Below are positions 44,332 to 54,020 of a DNA stretch of 64,000 nucleotides, piece after piece. The stretch's first letter is position 1; every line of letters starts with the position of its first letter. The translations under genes and the position numbers were made by a program. Source of the stretch: Nitrospirota bacterium (lineage in GTDB: Bacteria > Nitrospirota > UBA9217); contig CAWIYV010000009.1 of the NCBI GenBank assembly GCA_963840455.1, forward strand, positions 64,001 to 128,000, read 5' to 3'. The notes below the pieces were generated by a model, which saw only the letters and a list, made by a program, of their open reading frames with translations, ran no database searches and was not told where the DNA came from.

Positions 44332-44784
44332 ATGATCAAGAAAATACTGGTACCCACTGACGGTTCCAAAACTGCACGGAAAGCACTGAAATACGCGGTA
44401 GATCTCGCAAAACAGGCAGGATCGTCCATTGTCGTGCTGAGTGTGATAGATAAAAGTCCTTTTTATGGCGCACAGACCATGCCCTCTGCATCAAGCCCGA
44501 CCCATCTGCTGGAAAATCTGGAAGATTACCTCAGACAGACTGCCGTAGCCTATGTTGCAGAGGCTGAAGAACTCTGCAGGTCGAAAGGAGTTAAGTCACG
44601 AAAGATGGTCAGGGCGGGACATCCGGTCGAAGAGATCATAAAGGCAGCAGAGGACTCGAAAGTCGACCTCATCGTAGTGGGCTCTCACGGAAAGAGTGCA
44701 TTCGGCGCTGCACTTCTGGGCAGTGTAGCAATCGGATTAATACACAGGGAGGCAAAATATCCTGTTCTCGTAGTGAGACGATAA
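44332..44784 (+). CDS. Universal stress protein (UspA family)
   Basis: KKILVPTDGS, GHP.EEI, DLIVVGSHG, LLGSVA, PVLVVR. Confidence 0.92.
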   Translation: MIKKILVPTDGSKTARKALKYAVDLAKQAGSSIVVLSVIDKSPFYGAQTMPSASSPTHLLENLEDYLRQTAVAYVAEAEELCRSKGVKSRKMVRAGHPVEEIIKAAEDSKVDLIVVGSHGKSAFGAALLGSVAIGLIHREAKYPVLVVRR

Positions 44785-44888
44785 AGCGAAATTCAGGGAC
44801 TTTAACCAACCGGGAGAGAGGGCTATGCTATGGCATATAAGCGTAGGAAGGGCATAGAGGAAGATAGAGGAAATTAACTCAGATGAAC

Positions 44889-45030
44889 CGGCAGCGGGCA
44901 GAACGGGGAGTTCAGGAAAGGCGTACGCTGGCCAATGCCGCGCTTTGAATCAGAGGACGATACTGTGCTCGATCGTCTTACCGACCTCGTTTGGACCATG
45001 AATGCAAACCTTGGCGAATTCCCCATGGAA
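44889..45030 (+). pseudogene. DUF1566 protein relic (paralog of 28038-29069)
   Basis: GSGQNGEFRKGVRWPMPRFESEDDTVLDRLTDLVWTMNANLGEFPM compared with GSGQDAELKRGVSWPAPRFEVLDGAVLDRLTGLVWTRNANMAEFPL. Confidence 0.75.
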
Positions 45031-45150
45031 AACTCGGGTGCCTTGGTGCCTGCGCTGGGTTATCTTCTGGCAGAGGGGCGCACGCTCCGTCACAACATCC
45101 CCTATTTGTGCTCATAACAGAGATAGGGTCAGAGAGAATCTCCCCATTCT

Positions 45151-45780
45151 ATGGAAATCCGATACCTTCTCAAGGGGCTGATCGTCGGTTTTGTGATTGC
45201 CGTACCGATTGGGCCCATCGGCATACTCTGCGCTCGGCGCACACTGACGCAGGGCCGAATGGCGGGTTTTGTGTCCGGTATGGGCGCGGCCACGGCTGAT
45301 GTGTTCTACGGTTTTATCGCTGCGTTCGGTCTTGCCTTCATATCGGACATGCTCCTCAGCTACCAATTCTGGCTCAGGCTGGCGGGCGGAGCGTTTCTGT
45401 GTTTTCTCGGCATCAGAACGTTCATTGAAAAACCGGAGATAAAAAGCTTATTTTCAATGCTCAGGAAGAAGAAGCGGCATGCCGGAATGTTTACCTCCAC
45501 TTTTTTCCTGACGCTAATGAATCCCATGACCATTTTTTCCTTAGCCGCGGTCTTTGCCGGGCTCGGGCTTGCCGGCACAAAGGGAGACATTCTTTCAGCG
45601 TTCATACTGGTCCTGGGCGTGTTTTTGGGCTCGGTTCTCTGGTGGCTGCTGCTATTCGGAGTGTTCAGTGTCTTCAAGAGACGATTCAATCGTCATGAAA
45701 TGCAGTGGATAAACAGGATCGCGGGCATGATCATCATGGGTTTCGGGTTGCTCGCGTTCGCCAGCCTGTTAGTTCCGTAG
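45151..45780 (+). CDS. LysE-family translocator
   Basis: G...GF.IA.PIGP.G.LC..RTL..G...GF.SG.GAA.AD, TL.NPMTI. Confidence 0.9.
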   Translation: MEIRYLLKGLIVGFVIAVPIGPIGILCARRTLTQGRMAGFVSGMGAATADVFYGFIAAFGLAFISDMLLSYQFWLRLAGGAFLCFLGIRTFIEKPEIKSLFSMLRKKKRHAGMFTSTFFLTLMNPMTIFSLAAVFAGLGLAGTKGDILSAFILVLGVFLGSVLWWLLLFGVFSVFKRRFNRHEMQWINRIAGMIIMGFGLLAFASLLVP

Positions 45781-46138: not shown

Positions 46139-47509
46139 TTATTCAAGATTATCAAACGTGGCCGGTACGATGTTTGAAAGCGCAGGGAATATATGCATGC
46201 ATCCGGTTATGGATTTAACATCGGTTTTGTTGATCATTGCATTGACAACTTCCTGAATGAGCATTGCAGCATGAGGGCCGATGATATGAAAACCGAGGAC
46301 CCTCCGGGAGCCCTTTTCGACAACGGCCTTTGCAAAACCTTTACGCTCCATCATTGCCTCTCCCATCACGGTATCGGAATATAAGGTACGACCCACGAGG
46401 ATCTCGTGATGTTGCCGGGCCTGCTGCTCTGTCAGGCCCACCGATGCTATCTGCGGATGTGTATAGACCGCATAGGGGACGGACTCAAAATCCATCCTGA
46501 TCTTTTTCCTATGTCTGGCATTATGCCATGCCAGTTCAGCCTCCTTGTCTCCGGCGTGAGTGAACATTTTTCTGCCGATGGCATCGCCCAGCGCCCAGAT
46601 ATGCTTTTTGTTCGTCCGGAGATACTGGTCAACTTCTATGAAATTGGCATTGTCCATCTCTATTCCGGCATGTTCCAGCTTCAGCAGGTCGGCGTTGGAT
46701 TTTCTGCCGGCGTTGATCATCAGCTTCGCTGCAGCGATCCTTTTTACTCTGCCGGTCCTGATGTCCTTTACCAGCGCGGTATACCCATTGCTGCCCTGTT
46801 TTACCTCCATCGTCTCGACACCCATATGCAGTTCGATGCGTTTCTCCAATTCCTGTGTTAATAGTTTGGAGATCTCCGGTTCAGCAAAAGGCAAAAGCGC
46901 CGGACCTCTATCAATGACCTTGACCTTCACACCAAGAGCCGAGAAGAAATGCGCATATTCAAGTGATATGAATCCGCCTCCGATCAAGATGATGCTGTCG
47001 GGCTTCCGTGCGAGTCCCAGGACGCTTTCATTGGTCAGGAACGGATACTTTTCAAGTCCCTTGATCCGGGGAATCAATGGTCGTGCCCCGGTGGCTATGA
47101 ACAGCTTCTTTCCTCTGATCTTTTGATCACCGGCTTCAAGGGTATGTTCGTCTATGAAATGGCACTCTTTGTTTATGAAATCGAGATTCTCAGACTCCTT
47201 GATCGCCTTTTGTATGGAGCTTCTGCCTCGGGTGACAACACTTCTCATCCGCTCCATGAGCGCTCTGAAGTTAATATCGATTTTTCCCGAACGGATGCCG
47301 AGCTTTGTATTTTCTTGTGCCTCGATCATTCTGTCAGCGGTATAGATAAGCGTTTTGGAGGGGACACAACCGCTGTTAACGCAGGTTCCGCCTGGATGTC
47401 CCTTATCGACAAGAGCAACGTTCAGGCCTCTTGCAACAGCTTTAAACGCAACCGCCAGGCCGACATCACCTGCTCCAACGACGATAATATCATATGTTTT
47501 CATGACCAC
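46139..47509 (-). CDS. Class I pyridine nucleotide-disulfide oxidoreductase (dihydrolipoamide dehydrogenase / mycothione reductase-like)
   Basis: GAG FAD motif, GGTCVNSGCVPSK redox disulfide, GGGFI NAD(P) motif, GD; C-terminal HIFPAL. Confidence 0.88.
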   Translation of the reverse strand: MVMKTYDIIVVGAGDVGLAVAFKAVARGLNVALVDKGHPGGTCVNSGCVPSKTLIYTADRMIEAQENTKLGIRSGKIDINFRALMERMRSVVTRGRSSIQKAIKESENLDFINKECHFIDEHTLEAGDQKIRGKKLFIATGARPLIPRIKGLEKYPFLTNESVLGLARKPDSIILIGGGFISLEYAHFFSALGVKVKVIDRGPALLPFAEPEISKLLTQELEKRIELHMGVETMEVKQGSNGYTALVKDIRTGRVKRIAAAKLMINAGRKSNADLLKLEHAGIEMDNANFIEVDQYLRTNKKHIWALGDAIGRKMFTHAGDKEAELAWHNARHRKKIRMDFESVPYAVYTHPQIASVGLTEQQARQHHEILVGRTLYSDTVMGEAMMERKGFAKAVVEKGSRRVLGFHIIGPHAAMLIQEVVNAMINKTDVKSITGCMHIFPALSNIVPATFDNLE

Positions 47510-47536: not shown

Positions 47537-48079
47537 TTATTCCGGTGCAAGATCAGCTTCCAGATCGATAAAAAGCTGGACGTCCCTGCCAACCATGATG
47601 CCGTTGTTTTCCATTGGCTGATTCCACATGATCCCATAGTCTTCACGGTTTATCATGGCCGATACGGTAAAGCCCATGCTTGATCCGTCGCCAAAGGGGT
47701 CTTTTACCGGTCCTGAAAATTCAACCGAGACAGTTACCTGACGTGTTATGCCATGTATGGTCAGGTCGCCGGTCACCTGTGCCTTGTTGCCGTTCACTGA
47801 ATGTATCTGCGTAGAGGTGAACGAGATGGCGGGATACCTGTCGATATCAAAAAAATCAGGGCTTTTCAGGTGGTCGTCACGTTTCTGGACCCCTGTAAAA
47901 ATGCTTGAGGCATCGATGGACAGTTCTATTGATGAGCTCGTAATGTTCAGAGGATCAAAATAAACAGTCCCTCTAATATTGCTGAACTGGCCCCGAACAT
48001 GCGCAATCATCATGTGGCGGACAGAAAATACTGCTCCTGAGTGATCAGGATCTATGATCCATTTGGCCATTTTACCCAT
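47537..48079 (-). CDS. YceI-family protein
   Basis: W.IDPDHS...FSVRHMM...VRGQF, RD.HL.S.DFF, GDLTIHG.T. Confidence 0.92.
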   Translation of the reverse strand: MGKMAKWIIDPDHSGAVFSVRHMMIAHVRGQFSNIRGTVYFDPLNITSSSIELSIDASSIFTGVQKRDDHLKSPDFFDIDRYPAISFTSTQIHSVNGNKAQVTGDLTIHGITRQVTVSVEFSGPVKDPFGDGSSMGFTVSAMINREDYGIMWNQPMENNGIMVGRDVQLFIDLEADLAPE

Positions 48080-48094
48080 CCTTTTTCAATGGCA

Positions 48095-49141
48095 TCAAAT
48101 AGGCAGAAAACACTGCGGATCCTCGGCCAGGTAATTCGTTATGCCGTGAGAACGTGAAAATTCATACGCTATTGCCCTGCAGCCTCTGCATGCCGACCAT
48201 CTATTACAGGTGCCGCATTTACCATCATAACGAGACCTGTCTCTCAATGAGTTCAAGACCTCTGATGTTGACCATATCTCCCTCAGGGAATCTGTTCTGA
48301 CATTACCGATGGGAACAGGAAGTCTTCTGCAGGGAGTTACTGTTCCGTCGGGCAGGATCGTTAACCCCGAGACGCCTGCCGCGCATCCGCCGGTAGGAAA
48401 GGAGCTCGTATCATCTTCGCCCGCCGGCCTTCTGAACTGTGACGCGACGGGATCGCCCGTGACGATCTTCAGGCTGCCCGTATTCAGCGAAAATATTTTG
48501 CTGTACAGATCCTCCAGCACCTCTTTCGTCAGCATTCTGTCCAACAACGTTCTCCCGCTTCCCGACGGAACCAGCCTTGAAAAACCCAGCTTCTGCACGC
48601 CCATCGAAGAAGCGAGGGCTATAACGTCCAAAAAAAATGAAGCATTTATGTCGGAAAGCGTTGTATTCAAGGCCACTTCTATGCCAGCGTCAAGGAGGCA
48701 TTGTATCCCGGAAAGGGAACGCTTCAGGTTTCCTTTGCCCCGTATTGCGTCATGGATGCCTTCCGGGCCCTCAATGCTTACCTGGACCCCTTTCACTCCC
48801 AATTGGGCAAGTAGTTCGGCGGTATCCCTGCGAATGAGCGTTCCGTTGGAAAGCAGGTAAGCGTCAAATCTATTCTTGGTGAGTTCTTCCAGTATCTGAA
48901 AAATATCCTGTCTCAGGAGTGGTTCACCGCCGGTGATGTTGAAACTGGAAGAAAAAGTAACATCATAGGCCGCTGACCATTCCCCGAGCATATCAGCAAC
49001 TTCACGGATGACACTTCGGATCCCGGTTAAAGACTGCTCATCCGAGCTATTTCCGGATTGATAGCAGTGCGTACATCTGAGGTTGCATCTTTCCGTAAGA
49101 TGCAACTGAATGAAAAATTCCAGGGGATTGTTTATTGACAT
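48095..49141 (-). CDS. Radical SAM/SPASM domain peptide-maturase-like protein
   Basis: CNLRCTHC, TGGEP, SNG; SPASM domain CAAG...PDG.VTPC...CGTC...CRGCRA...DPQC. Confidence 0.9.
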   Translation of the reverse strand: MSINNPLEFFIQLHLTERCNLRCTHCYQSGNSSDEQSLTGIRSVIREVADMLGEWSAAYDVTFSSSFNITGGEPLLRQDIFQILEELTKNRFDAYLLSNGTLIRRDTAELLAQLGVKGVQVSIEGPEGIHDAIRGKGNLKRSLSGIQCLLDAGIEVALNTTLSDINASFFLDVIALASSMGVQKLGFSRLVPSGSGRTLLDRMLTKEVLEDLYSKIFSLNTGSLKIVTGDPVASQFRRPAGEDDTSSFPTGGCAAGVSGLTILPDGTVTPCRRLPVPIGNVRTDSLREIWSTSEVLNSLRDRSRYDGKCGTCNRWSACRGCRAIAYEFSRSHGITNYLAEDPQCFLPI

Positions 49142-49207
49142 TCGGCTTTCTCTGATCTGATTTCAGGATTAACCACGTACCTTATTGCCCCGCAGTATAG
49201 AAAGAAC

Positions 49208-49262
49208 AGGCAGATATGATGATCATACCGATATCACCGGTAGGTGTCATGCATATCTGCCT
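49208..49262 (-). promoter_or_regulatory. Long stem-loop between precursor and maturase genes (attenuator / mRNA stabiliser)
   Basis: Perfect 11-bp outer stem AGGCAGATATG...CATATCTGCCT plus an imperfect inner stem. Confidence 0.6.
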
Positions 49263-49267
49263 TTTTC

Positions 49268-49284
49268 GCTGCCGAACCGGCAAC
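49268..49284 (-). promoter_or_regulatory. SECIS-like hairpin
   Basis: GUUGCCG-GUU-CGGCAGC; the G-initial loop lies 16 nt after the second UGA and 25 nt after the first. Confidence 0.6.
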
Positions 49285-49407
49285 TTAGCTCTTTCAGCCC
49301 TTTCACTTGTGACATGTCATCCCAGGATGATCTTTTGCAGACTTTTTGAGATTATCCCAGAAAGCAGCCTCTTTCGCGAGGGCTTTTGCCGACAATGTCT
49401 TCTTCAT
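49285..49407 (-). CDS. Putative selenocysteine-containing RiPP precursor peptide (40 aa, two in-frame UGA)
   Basis: RBS AAGGAGGTG; MKKTLSAKALAKEAAFWDNLKKSAKDHPGMTCHK-TGA(49303-05)-KG-TGA(49294-96)-KS-TAA; adjacent to rSAM/SPASM. Confidence 0.7.
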
Positions 49408-49448
49408 CCTTTTTCACCTCCTTTCCGTCCCTAAGATCGCCCATACAG

Positions 49449-49475
49449 ATAGATGGTATCTATATTATTATAGCA
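49449..49475 (-). promoter_or_regulatory. Extended -10 promoter and nearby inverted repeat upstream of the precursor gene
   Basis: TGCTATAAT on the minus strand (49467-49475); ATAGAT-GGT-ATCTAT palindrome (49449-49463). Confidence 0.45.
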
Positions 49476-49537
49476 TGGCTGTTTTTTGCCGTTTATCAAA
49501 TGCCTGGATGTGCCGGCCATCTTGACGCAACCGTGCA

Positions 49538-50722
49538 TTATTCTGCATTTGGATCAGGGAAATATCTCAGGGAATAGAGGATCTGCAGGATACTGAGACC
49601 GGTCAGGATCCCCAGGACCGCGATCCCGGATAGGGTGAACGCGAGGAACCCTGTCGCCATGGTAAGCACAGCCAGCCCATACTGCGGCAGAACAAAGCGT
49701 AGCGCCGCATCAGGCGGTTTGCCAGGGTATGAGGAGAGGAAGATCGTATTCAGCGAGAACATGCTGACTCCTGCAGAGGCGCTGAGAATGAAGGCCTCCT
49801 GGGCAGGCATCATCGCGGAAGGCGCCAGCACGATCACCCGCTTGACCCCGACAGCAAGGGAAGCGATGCCCATGGTCAGCGGCAAGTGTGAATAAAGCCA
49901 TTGCTGATATGCCCTCACGTGATTCTTTGAGGTCAACTGTCTCGTTCCCGCCCCCCTGACTCCTTCAAAGTATCCCCACCAAAGGGTAAAAGCGATGACC
50001 AGTCCCATGACGCCTGCAGAACCTGCCGCGAACGTCAGTTGGCCCGCCCCGACCCCCAGGACAACGCTGACCACGGCCTCCCCGATGACGATGATGGTTA
50101 AGAGGCCGAAACGCTCGGGGAGGTGCATGAGATGGGGAGGGAACTTGGCATGGAGCTGTCCGGCGGTGAGAGGGGCAAGAAAATCGATGATGATCGCAAC
50201 GTACCAGATAATGAAGCGGTGCGGCATCGGTATAAACGTTGAGACGACCCATAATGCAGCCGCACTCCCGAAGCCCAGCATATAACGGTTTACGATTGGA
50301 CGAACATGCGGTATGTGCCGTCCGGCACGAAAGTATTCGGCTACCAGCATGAAGCGGACCGCTGCATACGACAGGGCGAAACCAATGGAACCATTTCCCA
50401 GGGCATTGGGCACATGCACGATGAGTGACGCCACCGCCACGATCTGTGCCATCGTGAGAAGCCTGTGACCAATATCATCAGAATCAAAACGGGTCAAGTA
50501 AAAGGTCTGGCCGACCCAGGCCCACCAGACAGGCACGAAGAGAACGGTGAAATGCAGCAGTCCTGTCAGTGAGTAGTCTCTATTGAGGTTTCCGGCCAGC
50601 TGGGATATAGCTGCAACAAAGACAAGGTCATACAAGAGCTCCAGCCATGTCGCATGCCGCTCCCGTTCCTCAGCGGCATCGGTCCTGAGCCTCGGCGGTT
50701 TGATCAGTCCTTTCTTGAGCAT
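49538..50722 (-). CDS. ltrA: Low temperature requirement protein A family
   Basis: ATWLEL.YDLVFV, WWAW, H..ERFGL.TIIV.GE, LWW.YF. Confidence 0.88.
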   Translation of the reverse strand: MLKKGLIKPPRLRTDAAEERERHATWLELLYDLVFVAAISQLAGNLNRDYSLTGLLHFTVLFVPVWWAWVGQTFYLTRFDSDDIGHRLLTMAQIVAVASLIVHVPNALGNGSIGFALSYAAVRFMLVAEYFRAGRHIPHVRPIVNRYMLGFGSAAALWVVSTFIPMPHRFIIWYVAIIIDFLAPLTAGQLHAKFPPHLMHLPERFGLLTIIVIGEAVVSVVLGVGAGQLTFAAGSAGVMGLVIAFTLWWGYFEGVRGAGTRQLTSKNHVRAYQQWLYSHLPLTMGIASLAVGVKRVIVLAPSAMMPAQEAFILSASAGVSMFSLNTIFLSSYPGKPPDAALRFVLPQYGLAVLTMATGFLAFTLSGIAVLGILTGLSILQILYSLRYFPDPNAE

Positions 50723-52790: not shown

Positions 52791-53240
52791 TTAGCTGACG
52801 TTGTGCTCTACGAACCGGTCAAGGGACCACTTCCCGCCACCCTTGATGATCAACGCAATGGCCATACCGATCACGAGGATATGAAACTCGAAGCCTTCAC
52901 CCTTCTGGTTCCCGAACCAGTTCATAAAGAACCCGTTCTGCCAGTGCAGCATGTACACGGCAACGGCCATGTTCATGCCGATGCCAAAGGCCGCCACGCG
53001 GGTGAAGAGCCCGGTGATCAATCCGAGGGAACCAAGCCCCTCAGCCATGATCGCCAGGAATGCAAAAACGGCCGGGATTCCCATCTTATCGGTGAACATG
53101 CCTAACGTGCCCGTAAAACCAGGCCCTCCGAACCACCCGAAGAGCTTCTGCATGCCATGGGGGAAGAACACCACACCCAGTGCGATCCTGATCACCATGA
53201 TCGCAATATCATTGTCCGTCCGGACCAATTTCTTGAACAT
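52791..53240 (-). CDS. DoxX-family membrane protein
   Basis: RIALG.VFFPHG.QKLFGWFGG.G, GL.TR.AA, G.G.EFH.L, GGG.WSLD. Confidence 0.92.
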   Translation of the reverse strand: MFKKLVRTDNDIAIMVIRIALGVVFFPHGMQKLFGWFGGPGFTGTLGMFTDKMGIPAVFAFLAIMAEGLGSLGLITGLFTRVAAFGIGMNMAVAVYMLHWQNGFFMNWFGNQKGEGFEFHILVIGMAIALIIKGGGKWSLDRFVEHNVS

Positions 53241-53284
53241 ATGCGCCTCCTTTCGCTGCGCCGCCGCAGCTTGTTCAGGTATTT

Positions 53285-53503
53285 CTATTTCGCGTGCGTC
53301 CCATCACAGAAGGGCGGGTTCTTGGTTCGCTGACACGCGCACAAAGCGACCTGTTCGGTCTTCTTGATGACGAATTCCACCGGCTCCTTGCCGGTTCCTT
53401 TGTGGGAGCCGTCGCAGAACGGTTCCTTGAGGCTCTTTCCGCAGCTGCACCAGGAGTACGTGCCGGGATGGAGCGTAACGCTGAATGGTATGTTCTTCGG
53501 CAT
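53285..53503 (-). CDS. Tandem CDGSH iron-sulfur domain protein (paralog)
   Basis: WCSCGKS..EPFCDGSH and LCACQRT..PPFCDGTH; RBS AGGAGG. Confidence 0.88.
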   Translation of the reverse strand: MPKNIPFSVTLHPGTYSWCSCGKSLKEPFCDGSHKGTGKEPVEFVIKKTEQVALCACQRTKNPPFCDGTHAK

Positions 53504-53558
53504 CAGGCCAACCTCCTCTTATTGATAAGCTTTTTTATGGTATCGGTCCGAAGACCGG

Positions 53559-54020
53559 TCAGCTTCTTGCTTTCCTTTCCTGCAGGCCGACCTTCCTGCA
53601 GAGACGTCCCAACTCGTCCTGCTCCGCTTTGGTCAACACGCTCATCTCTTTGACGATGCGGCGCACGTGGCCGGGGAAGAAAGACGTAATAAGCGCCGAG
53701 CCTTTTGTCGTGATCCGCACGGAATAGTGCCGCCGGTCCTTTTCTTCCCGGACCCGCTCCACGAGGCCTTGTTTTTCCAGGTTGTCCACCACCATCGTGA
53801 TGTTGCCGGTGCTCTTCAGGATCTTGGATGCCAGGTCCTTCTGATAGAGGGGACCCAGGTGGTACAATGCCTCAAGCGCCCCGAACTGGCTTACCGAAAG
53901 ACCTATCTCGCTGAAAGGGGACTCTACCCGGCCTGATACCGACTGGGCCGCCCGCACCAGCTTGATGAAGGCGTTCAGCGCCCTCGTTTCCTCTTTTGTC
54001 CCTTCATATCGTGTTCCCAT
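53559..54020 (-). CDS. MarR-family regulator (MhqR-like)
   Basis: GL..SQF..LEAL.HLGPL....L...IL...GNIT.VVD.LEK.GLV.R.....DRR. Confidence 0.9.
   Translation of the reverse strand: MGTRYEGTKEETRALNAFIKLVRAAQSVSGRVESPFSEIGLSVSQFGALEALYHLGPLYQKDLASKILKSTGNITMVVDNLEKQGLVERVREEKDRRHYSVRITTKGSALITSFFPGHVRRIVKEMSVLTKAEQDELGRLCRKVGLQERKARS

Follow-up and report, generated by a model that had tools for sequence, protein, structure and literature searches.

A widespread two-gene cassette of Nitrospirota and Desulfobulbales that appears to encode a second family of selenocysteine-containing modified peptides

Within a 64,000-nucleotide stretch of a Nitrospirota genome (assembly GCA_963840455.1, contig CAWIYV010000009.1, positions 64,001 to 128,000; hereafter the window), we analysed two adjacent minus-strand genes, one for a 40-residue peptide interrupted by two in-frame UGA codons and the other for a radical S-adenosylmethionine (SAM)/SPASM enzyme. 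The two genes probably form a cassette that yields a ribosomally made selenopeptide together with its own maturase. The precursor gene is real, its family is widespread in two anaerobic lineages, and the recoding of its UGAs as selenocysteine (Sec, U) is very well supported by sequence comparison; the type of reaction catalysed by the enzyme is suggested purely by analogy. The elements on which the argument turns are as follows:

49285..49407, minus strand: precursor gene, 40 codons plus TAA (ATG at 49407..49405, TAA at 49287..49285)
49303..49305, minus strand: first in-frame TGA (Sec35)
49294..49296, minus strand: second in-frame TGA (Sec38)
49415..49423, minus strand: ribosome-binding site AAGGAGGTG, 7 nt before the precursor ATG
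49268..49284, minus strand: hairpin of the selenocysteine insertion sequence (SECIS) type, 6-bp stem GUUGCC/GGCAGC and loop GGUUC, in the 3′ untranslated region (3′ UTR) directly past the stop
48095..49141, minus strand: radical SAM/SPASM enzyme, 348 aa, with Pfam Radical_SAM (PF04055) at residues 15-161 and SPASM (PF13186) at 253-313, both above cut-off

With TGA read as U, the precursor translates as MKKTLSAKALAKEAAFWDNLKKSAKDHPGMTCHKUKGUKS, comprising a leader (residues 1-31) in which E13 and W17 are invariant and a core, C32-H-K-U35-K-G-U38-K-S40. An earlier examination of the letters alone (the sequence-only reading) had pointed to this frame, describing a strong ribosome-binding site, two TGAs in register with the cysteine as C-H-K-U-K-G-U, a GUUGCCG-GUU-CGGCAGC hairpin directly after the stop and a radical SAM/SPASM gene next. 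Translation with TGA as U reproduced the core, the binding site stands at 49423..49415, the hairpin folds at 49284..49268, and the next gene matches both Pfam domains over its 348 residues. The distances of 16 and 25 nt that it gave between the UGAs and the loop G are right when counted from the A of each codon, corresponding to 18 and 27 nt from the U. Its statement that the frame was absent from the list of open reading frames (ORFs) needs amending: under translation table 11 the frame is present as a 34-aa ORF (49303..49407) and is cut short there. Truncation by gene callers, which it had foreseen, is what the public data contain, as among 5.8 billion predicted proteins only two records are products of the family and both are truncated 34-aa precursor forms. 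In many related loci, a GGAGG context ('KGGE..M' in the read-through frame) also precedes the ATG. Antisense ORFs over the precursor gene (79-92 aa; in 19, 11 and 5 loci) mimic conserved protein clusters; as artefacts of this kind, they could be annotated automatically instead of the precursor gene.

Three independent collections of loci describe the conservation of the peptide. A search with the enzyme only, across 41 related genomes, yielded 13 orthologues (52-84% identity), all in the taxonomic family of the window, and a peptide ending C-[HR]-K-U-K-G-U-K-S lies within 600 nt upstream of 12 of them. In these 12 loci, the codons past the first TGA differ only synonymously (AAG/AAA, GGC/GGT) and the internal TGAs are fixed, while the final stop is TAA, TAG or TGA. 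All 12 also have the hairpin. The second collection came from a degenerate DNA pattern that permitted TGA, TGC or TGT at both Sec positions and was run over one genome per species for 185,579 species. It returned 94 stretches against a chance expectation of about 0.6 (our own arithmetic, assuming uniform base composition), and 92 were clear family members with TGA at both positions and the hairpin. The remaining two stretches, which have Cys codons and lie inside a long frame (L048) or in a different context (L074), were rejected as unrelated pattern matches and counted as chance. The 92 carrier species beyond the window genome are mostly Nitrospirota, with some Desulfobulbales. When the window is included, both internal codons are TGA in 93 of 93 members despite the permitted TGC and TGT; the codon after Ser40, by comparison, is TGA in 43, TAA in 37, TAG in 2 and a single sense codon followed by a stop in 11.

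The third collection rests on a profile hidden Markov model (HMM) built from precursor residues 1-34 only and, like the enzyme-derived set, is free of the limits that the pattern placed on core codons. In Nitrospirota, 72 of the 401 genomes sampled match the leader profile (36 of 63 within the taxonomic family of the window), as do 17 of the 301 sampled from the order to which the Desulfobulbaceae carriers belong. Among the 30 strongest loci, a regular expression that also accepted Cys found a U..U core in 29, and L156 reads CHKUKSURS. Fetching the 14 weakest matches gave the readable cores CRKUSSUKS, CHKUKSUKS, CRKUNSUKS, CQKUKSUKS, CQKUKGUKS and CHKUKGUKT; the cores CHKUKGUKS and CRKUKGUKS also occur among the profile matches, and in one core the serine is encoded by TCG instead of AGY. 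The Desulfobulbales set comprises 18 loci, 13 of which hold the full peptide with both Sec residues and one additional C-terminal residue; the regular expression returned nothing in four, and one is a weak match with a divergent core (L201). L201 (G453:C353:3359-3460, minus strand; leader match E 5e-5) has the tail C-R-K-U-N-S-F-E-S-Q-U-D-C-V-H-T-S-G; its TGAs are separated by 21 nt, and its stop is not followed by a GGUC hairpin. This copy may be decaying, or it may represent a distant sister family.

Taken over the family, the core follows the consensus C-[HRQ]-K-U-[KSN]-[GS]-U-K-[ST]. No Cys form was found among more than 130 cores of the pattern and leader-HMM sets, and because no interchange between Cys and TGA was seen at either position, a check that the sequence-only reading had proposed, Sec looks obligate in the peptide. 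Moreover, variation past the first TGA shows three-base periodicity, and the changes of KG to SS, KS or NS keep the frame. These frame-preserving variants and the switch of serine codon family indicate selection on a protein that extends beyond both UGAs.

The same observations bear on a simpler account, in which the TGAs are ordinary stops, the product has 34 residues, and the downstream conservation and hairpin belong to an RNA element such as a terminator, stabiliser or regulator. The 34-aa form given by gene callers fits this account, as do the strong terminator-like hairpin downstream and a minimum-free-energy fold that pairs the coding-end GAAAGAGC with the U-rich tail. However, neither position is ever TAA or TAG, yet the stop 9 nt later uses all three codons. 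In no homologue does TAA or TAG replace the first TGA as the end of the peptide, and conservation continues downstream with synonymous changes. The periodicity, the AGY-to-TCG serine switch and the frame-preserving KG variants likewise argue against ordinary stops, as do the Sec machinery of the carriers and the likeness of the hairpin to the SECIS elements of the host's own fdhA genes, both described below. We therefore regard ordinary termination at these codons as exceedingly improbable.

Covariation of the hairpin was measured on the 93-sequence alignment. Pairing holds in 99.1% of cells of the six-pair stem, double-sided changes occur at four of its pairs, and pair 41-47 is CG in 55 sequences and UA in 37 with zero mismatches. 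None of 500 shuffles matched the observed values, and sliding the partner by 1-3 columns left only 15-57% paired. The usual hairpin of the family is GUUGCC-GGUC(N)-GGCAAC, with a loop of GGUC(N) or GGUUC. In the E. coli fdhF element (NC_000913), GUUGCA-GGUC-UGCAC, the start of the loop lies at 21 nt from the U of UGA; the family hairpin matches it in its GUUGC arm and GGUC loop and has a spacing near 21 nt. In the window genome, the in-frame TGA of three formate-dehydrogenase-type genes is followed at 21 nt by a GGUCU-loop hairpin whose arm and loop likewise match those of the family, and for a YedE-like selenoprotein gene the GGUC loop comes at 23 nt. By its sequence and pairing, the hairpin past the precursor stop is an fdhF-type SECIS element. 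No Rfam family reached its gathering threshold anywhere in the window and no Rfam SECIS model matched the hairpin; a search of 49100..49550 at E≤10 gave only chance-level matches to PsrR1 and GcvB on the opposite strand.

Measured from its U to the first loop G, the second UGA lies 18 nt from the loop in the window and 18-22 nt in 85 of 93 members, most often at 19 nt (57/93) or 20 nt (19/93). The first UGA lies 9 nt further away, at 27-31 nt. In about half of the family the stop is itself a TGA. It then stands only some 10 nt before the loop, with a few bases separating it from the stem, and both this placement and the way it swaps freely with TAA and TAG indicate a true stop. As in the UXX-star and KCU-star families (PMC13188914, Table 1), Sec falls within three residues of the stop, so that the SECIS must sit beyond the coding region. 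In addition, PMC13188914 tabulates metal-binding proteins with UxxU pairs as well as UXX-star families whose Sec adjoins the stop, and these are precedents for two close UGAs and for a SECIS past the stop. Unlike fdhF and UXX-star, a single hairpin apparently serves two UGAs here, at offsets of about 19 and 28 nt. The peptide matches no NCBIfam family at E≤10, including the UXX-star models NF041114 and NF041211.

The carriers are largely equipped for Sec. In the window genome (100% complete), selB (383.5 bits) adjoins selA (606.9 bits), a Sec-type selD carries an in-frame TGA of its own, and a tRNA-Sec was found at 66.5 bits, so that selA, selB, selD and tRNA-Sec were all detected. Among the 13 enzyme-bearing relatives, selA is present in nine, with a Sec-type selD in two of the other four (G007 and G012); all five of the non-Nitrospirota carriers tested also have selA. 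The selenoproteome of the window genome is rich in its own right, with in-frame TGAs in five formate-dehydrogenase-type genes, a YedE-like frame that reads …GGYUPGTS…, and additional TGA frames with GGUC-loop hairpins at 21-29 nt, the latter taken from a crude hairpin scan with many false matches. The candidate selenoprotein sites are C8:21374-24481, C8:28578-31700, C13:12639-15842, C9:238791-239519, C10:289793-290518, C10:~75603, C14:~397542 and C8:~80735.

Turning to the enzyme, its CX3CX2C motif (C19/C23/C26) and seven SPASM cysteines (C253, C271, C309, C312, C318, C321 and C344) are invariant across 52 sequences. By analogy with CteB-type enzymes, these seven protein ligands would leave one iron site open in its two auxiliary clusters. 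The radical SAM domain starts at residue 15, leaving no N-terminal extension for a domain of the RiPP recognition element (RRE) or PqqD type (RiPP, a peptide made on the ribosome and modified after translation), and no PqqD-like conserved neighbour was found among the clustered neighbour genes. None of the curated NCBIfam cut-offs was reached. The best matches were NirJ2 at 176.5 bits (cut-off 500) and AhbD at 175.1 (500); lower scores include the ACGX-system radical SAM protein at 160.1 (400), the GeoRSP radical SAM protein at 138.6 (400), SbtM (TIGR04082) at 132 (350; model positions 199-516 of 516 only), MftC at 122.9 (265), StsB (NF045574) at 97.3 (625), SkfB (TIGR04403) at 83.4 (300), PqqE at 75.4 (381), PapB (NF047865) at 73.7 (340) and AlbA (NF012164) at 65.6 (850). 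More than 120 public protein clusters, from Nitrospirota/Thermodesulfovibrionales, resemble the enzyme at 62-97% identity and carry only generic names ('radical SAM protein', 'AdoMet-dependent heme synthase').

These scores and names raise the question of whether the enzyme is a heme-pathway radical SAM protein of the AhbD, AhbC or NirJ type that has nothing to do with the peptide, NirJ2 and AhbD being its best NCBIfam matches and heme synthase the name of some homologues. Both scores (175.1 bits for TIGR04545 and 176.5 bits for TIGR04055) are nonetheless far under the 500-bit cut-offs, and the assignment fails because the genuine AhbD of this genome sits elsewhere, at C11:53474-54490, with 521.6 bits. 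The clade of the enzyme is, moreover, tied to the peptide. We give the heme-pathway assignment scarcely any weight, an outcome in favour of the sequence-only reading.

By sequence, the closest solved structures are SkfB (6efn, E 1.7e-22), then CteB (5wgg), PqqE and anSME; by fold, they are SkfB, SuiB, PqqE, MoaA and anSME, in a search that used an AlphaFold single-chain model with a mean predicted local distance difference test (pLDDT) value of 72.8 and a poorly determined SPASM half.

Genomic arrangement links the enzyme to the peptide. The enzyme gene lies directly downstream of the peptide gene on the same strand in 81 of the 92 loci, in both Nitrospirota and Desulfobulbales, and the peptide is accordingly kept upstream of the maturase homologues. 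Among the 11 loci without an adjacent enzyme gene, four have less than 200 nt of contig remaining; an enzyme orthologue (57-59% identity) is encoded elsewhere in four of the five orphan-peptide genomes tested. Structure prediction supports binding of the leader by the enzyme. A complex modelled from the enzyme alignment and the 34-residue table-11 peptide scored 0.80, compared with 0.02 for the best control. Of the solved complexes, 58 of 80 reached that mark, as did 2 of the 110 mismatched pairs, a calibration that is only rough because our own alignments were used. The runs share at least 77% of contacts, and the partner has a pLDDT of at least 70. The modelled contacts join E13 and W17, both invariant in the leader, to the invariant enzyme residues W55, Y59, R287 and W290, and core residues 29-33 lie near enzyme residues 229-231 and 246-258 (including C253) and C271. 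Collectively, these findings make the enzyme very probably the maturase of the precursor.

Several observations weigh against a precursor and maturase acting as one recoded cassette. In 7 of the 88 loci with downstream room, no enzyme gene is adjacent: nothing related comes next in L051, L056, L062 and L109, and a YceI gene comes next in L084, L092 and L111. The fifth orphan-peptide genome (G041) has only a 34%-identical radical SAM match. Conversely, one enzyme orthologue (L034; G011:C135, upstream of 32225; 54% identity) has no peptide within 600 nt upstream, and the leader HMM matches nothing in that genome, which is 100% complete; either this enzyme works without the present substrate or its precursor is too divergent to detect. 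Four of the 13 enzyme-bearing relatives (63-96% complete) returned no selA and selB, and two genomes, G022 (63% complete) and G024 (86% complete), returned no sel gene. The first UGA, at 27-31 nt, is beyond the 21-23 nt of the host's other selenoprotein genes, and efficient recoding there is assumed. The synonymous-only variation within the 92-member set is partly built in, because the pattern itself limited the core codons. Finally, the complex model used the truncated peptide with neither Sec position in it, and the SPASM part of the enzyme model has pLDDT below 50 in several segments.

Part of this evidence could also be read as a small selenoprotein in its own right, perhaps a metal- or redox-active C-x2-U-x2-U knuckle, that stays unmodified and lies beside the enzyme gene on unconnected grounds, for instance because the two are regulated together or the enzyme acts on a different substrate. 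The seven peptide loci without an adjacent enzyme, three of them with YceI directly next, the one such genome without a close enzyme orthologue, the UxxU pairs listed for metal-binding selenoproteins (PMC13188914) and the redox theme of the neighbours (disulfide oxidoreductase, DJ-1, thioredoxin-like DUF255 and pentose-phosphate genes) agree with it. What speaks for a substrate and its maturase instead is the side-by-side, co-oriented placement of the two genes in 81 of 92 loci from both Nitrospirota and Desulfobulbales, a leader whose invariant E13 and W17 have no evident role in a free 9-residue metal site, a complex score far above the best control with invariant residues paired on both sides, and the fact that the closest solved relatives of the enzyme are peptide maturases. 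We consider an unmodified stand-alone selenoprotein unlikely.

The closest known system is SbtA/SbtM, which its discoverers presented (PMC9204691) as the first Sec-containing RiPP installed by a radical SAM enzyme, restricted to Geobacter and Desulfobacteria, with the Sec of a GGUG motif turned into a thio(seleno)oxazole; PMC11002830 agrees. The present cassette shares with SbtA/SbtM a short precursor with two TGA-encoded Sec residues, a downstream SECIS, an adjoining radical SAM/SPASM maturase with three Fe-S clusters, and anaerobic Sec-using hosts. It differs in that neither the 40-residue precursor (U as C) nor the 34-residue form matches the SbtA model TIGR04081 at E≤10, and in that the enzyme scores 132 bits against the 350 demanded for SbtM and is without the N-terminal part of about 200 residues. 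The sequence-only reading, which doubted membership of this 'selenobiotic' family, was right, as neither TIGR04081 nor TIGR04082 membership was reached. Moreover, the Sec residues stand in K-U-K and G-U-K contexts beside Cys, unlike the GGUG/SGUG of SbtA (PMC9204691; PMC13188914, Table 1), and the hosts are mainly Nitrospirota. SbtM takes Cys substrates in vitro; no natural Cys form of the present peptide was seen in the sets above.

A 2026 review tabulates 119 prokaryotic selenoprotein families, with 'Selenobacteriocin TIGR04081, SGUG, 2 Sec' as the sole RiPP-like entry and no entry for a C-x2-U-x2-U peptide (PMC13188914, Table 1). No prior description of the peptide was found in the searchable, mostly non-subscription literature, although supplements of selenoproteome surveys could list the family. 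It thus appears uncatalogued in NCBIfam release 20.0 and in the literature searched, and appears to be a second family of Sec-containing modified peptides in anaerobic bacteria.

Other maturases offer partial parallels. As with the thioether-forming SPASM maturases of sactipeptides and ranthipeptides (SkfB, CteB, PapB and Tte1186), a Cys-bearing core follows a leader, and SkfB is closest by both sequence and fold; the N-terminal RRE-type domain of those maturases is absent here, with matches beginning at about residue 100 of SkfB and CteB. Sec can take the place of Cys in the substrates of PapB and Tte1186, which then make selenoethers with Se on the auxiliary-cluster iron (PMC10177961), and selenoether chemistry is plausible here because they do so. 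In those systems Sec is a laboratory substitute, whereas here it is natural and looks obligate. The compact SPASM enzymes anSME, of a leader-less or RRE-less type, and PqqE (with PqqA) and MftC (with the mycofactocin peptide MftA), of cofactor-forming systems, have a similar fold and act on C-terminal residues of a small peptide, and products of the PqqA/PqqE and MftA/MftC type are used inside the cell. Unlike those two systems, no conserved PqqD-type chaperone or peptidase lies near the present cassette, and Sec is absent from their substrates.

Under the preferred reading of a precursor and its maturase, SelB acting on the single 3′-UTR hairpin would recode both UGAs, and a third UGA, about 10 nt before the loop, would terminate. 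An amphipathic leader helix with a K-E-A-A-F/Y-W motif would then dock on the enzyme despite its missing RRE domain, sitting between enzyme helix 38-59 (W55, Y59) and SPASM helix 285-300 (R287, W290), and the C-terminal C-x2-U-x2-U core would be placed beside the auxiliary-cluster cysteines C253 and C271. There, a core Cys or Sec may ligate the open iron site of an auxiliary [4Fe-4S] cluster, and the 5′-deoxyadenosyl radical would take a hydrogen from the core. The outcome could be Se-C or S-C cross-links resembling those of PapB and Tte1186, or an SbtM-like oxidation of Sec to a seleno-heterocycle.

The same placement of the core beside the auxiliary-cluster ligands would suit a peptide that serves as a sacrificial selenium carrier, a co-substrate from which the enzyme takes Se or Sec to build or modify something else. 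A strictly obligate Sec with no Cys variant in more than 130 cores is unusual among selenoproteins and is compatible with such a role, and so is the lack of a conserved protease or exporter. Against it, no such system was found in the literature searched, leader-dependent docking is typical of RiPP substrates, and the neighbourhood suggests no second substrate; we judge a carrier role very improbable.

Returning to the precursor and its maturase, a fuller proposal joins all parts of that reading. The family would be the first natural peptide family that strictly needs two Sec residues for maturation and function, with one 3′-UTR SECIS recoding UGAs 9 nt apart; an RRE-less SPASM enzyme would read the leader through a new helix-to-SPASM docking mode and install either Se-C (selenoether) bonds or a seleno-heterocycle that differs chemically from what SbtM makes; and the outcome, in these anaerobic Nitrospirota and Desulfobulbales, would be a redox or metal cofactor based on selenium and used inside the cell instead of an antibiotic. 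We advance this combination tentatively, as possible but doubtful in its entirety.

The remaining features of the locus in the window are as follows:

49467..49475, minus strand: candidate extended -10 promoter element TGCTATAAT, upstream of the precursor gene
49199..49262, minus strand: second long hairpin AGGCAGATATG ... CATATCTGCCT (49262..49208) and U-rich tract, between the SECIS and the enzyme gene
47537..48079, minus strand: YceI-like protein, 180 aa, no evident signal peptide, 15 nt past the enzyme gene
46139..47509, minus strand: class I pyridine nucleotide-disulfide oxidoreductase with active site CVNSGC, 27 nt past the YceI gene

TGCTATAAT is a possible extended -10 element of the precursor gene by its letters; a consensus promoter scan did not report it, the nearest TTGATA (49499..49494) being 21 nt away. 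The second hairpin has stems of at least 11 bp in 61 of 89 related loci, compared with 5 of 267 shuffled controls, and its tail has at least five T in 10 nt in 45 of 90 loci. Its stem sequence is kept across many loci (GGCAGATATG(G) ... (C)CATATCTGCC) and its interior varies. In the minimum-free-energy fold, pairing of the coding-end GAAAGAGC with the U-rich tail gives a three-way junction with z = -4.59. This hairpin resembles a terminator or attenuator and may have a role beyond plain termination; we infer that an attenuating terminator after the precursor gene would leave the precursor in excess over the enzyme.

Clustering of 814 flanking ORFs identified only the enzyme (74-81 loci) and YceI (26 of 92 loci, three of them directly after the peptide with no enzyme gene between) as widely recurring neighbours, the others being lineage-specific metabolic or redox genes. 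These others comprise 6-phosphogluconolactonase (18/92), glucose-6-phosphate dehydrogenase (17/92), transaldolase, 6-phosphogluconate dehydrogenase, DJ-1/PfpI, an epimerase and an OmpA-domain protein (10/92 each), thioredoxin-like DUF255 and pyridine nucleotide-disulfide oxidoreductase (9/92 each), and a PEMT/ICMT-type methyltransferase (8/92). The oxidoreductase in the window falls below all named-family cut-offs (dihydrolipoyl dehydrogenase, 491.9 against 592 bits; MerA, 344.3 against 454 bits) and could conceivably be a selenopeptide reductase. In one subclade (L042, L045, L047, L059, L077, L096, L102, L115 and others), the cassette sits just downstream of a same-strand oxidative pentose-phosphate block of 6-phosphogluconate dehydrogenase, transaldolase, glucose-6-phosphate dehydrogenase and 6-phosphogluconolactonase, which hints at a link to NADPH supply. 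Around the cassette in the window, 52791..54020 and 44332..45780 hold DoxX, MarR regulator, universal stress protein and LysE-type exporter genes that recur in 0-1 of the 92 loci. One genome, G042 (= G348), has three peptide genes (L084/L174 at C3:~1337115, L172 and L173). Full copies with a CRKUSSUKS core account for two, of which one adjoins the enzyme gene; the third has a shortened leader (MATKESLGKV…), is followed by YceI and an oxidoreductase where the enzyme usually sits, and looks like a deletion remnant.

No conserved leader protease, exporter or immunity gene was found among the neighbours of the 92 loci. This absence and the redox-flavoured neighbours lead us to favour, with low confidence, an intracellular redox- or metal-active selenopeptide over a secreted antibiotic.

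The family is common and yet invisible to annotation, with leader-profile matches in 72 of the 401 Nitrospirota genomes sampled and only two truncated protein records, and genome-mining pipelines for RiPPs and for selenoproteins alike miss such genes. It offers a compact test case for recoding, with two UGAs, one hairpin and often a third UGA as the stop, and its cassette is a test of leader recognition by a maturase without an RRE domain. As the accessible literature presents SbtA/SbtM as the single precedent, a second, unrelated Sec-only family would allow the use of selenium versus sulfur in a natural product to be probed.

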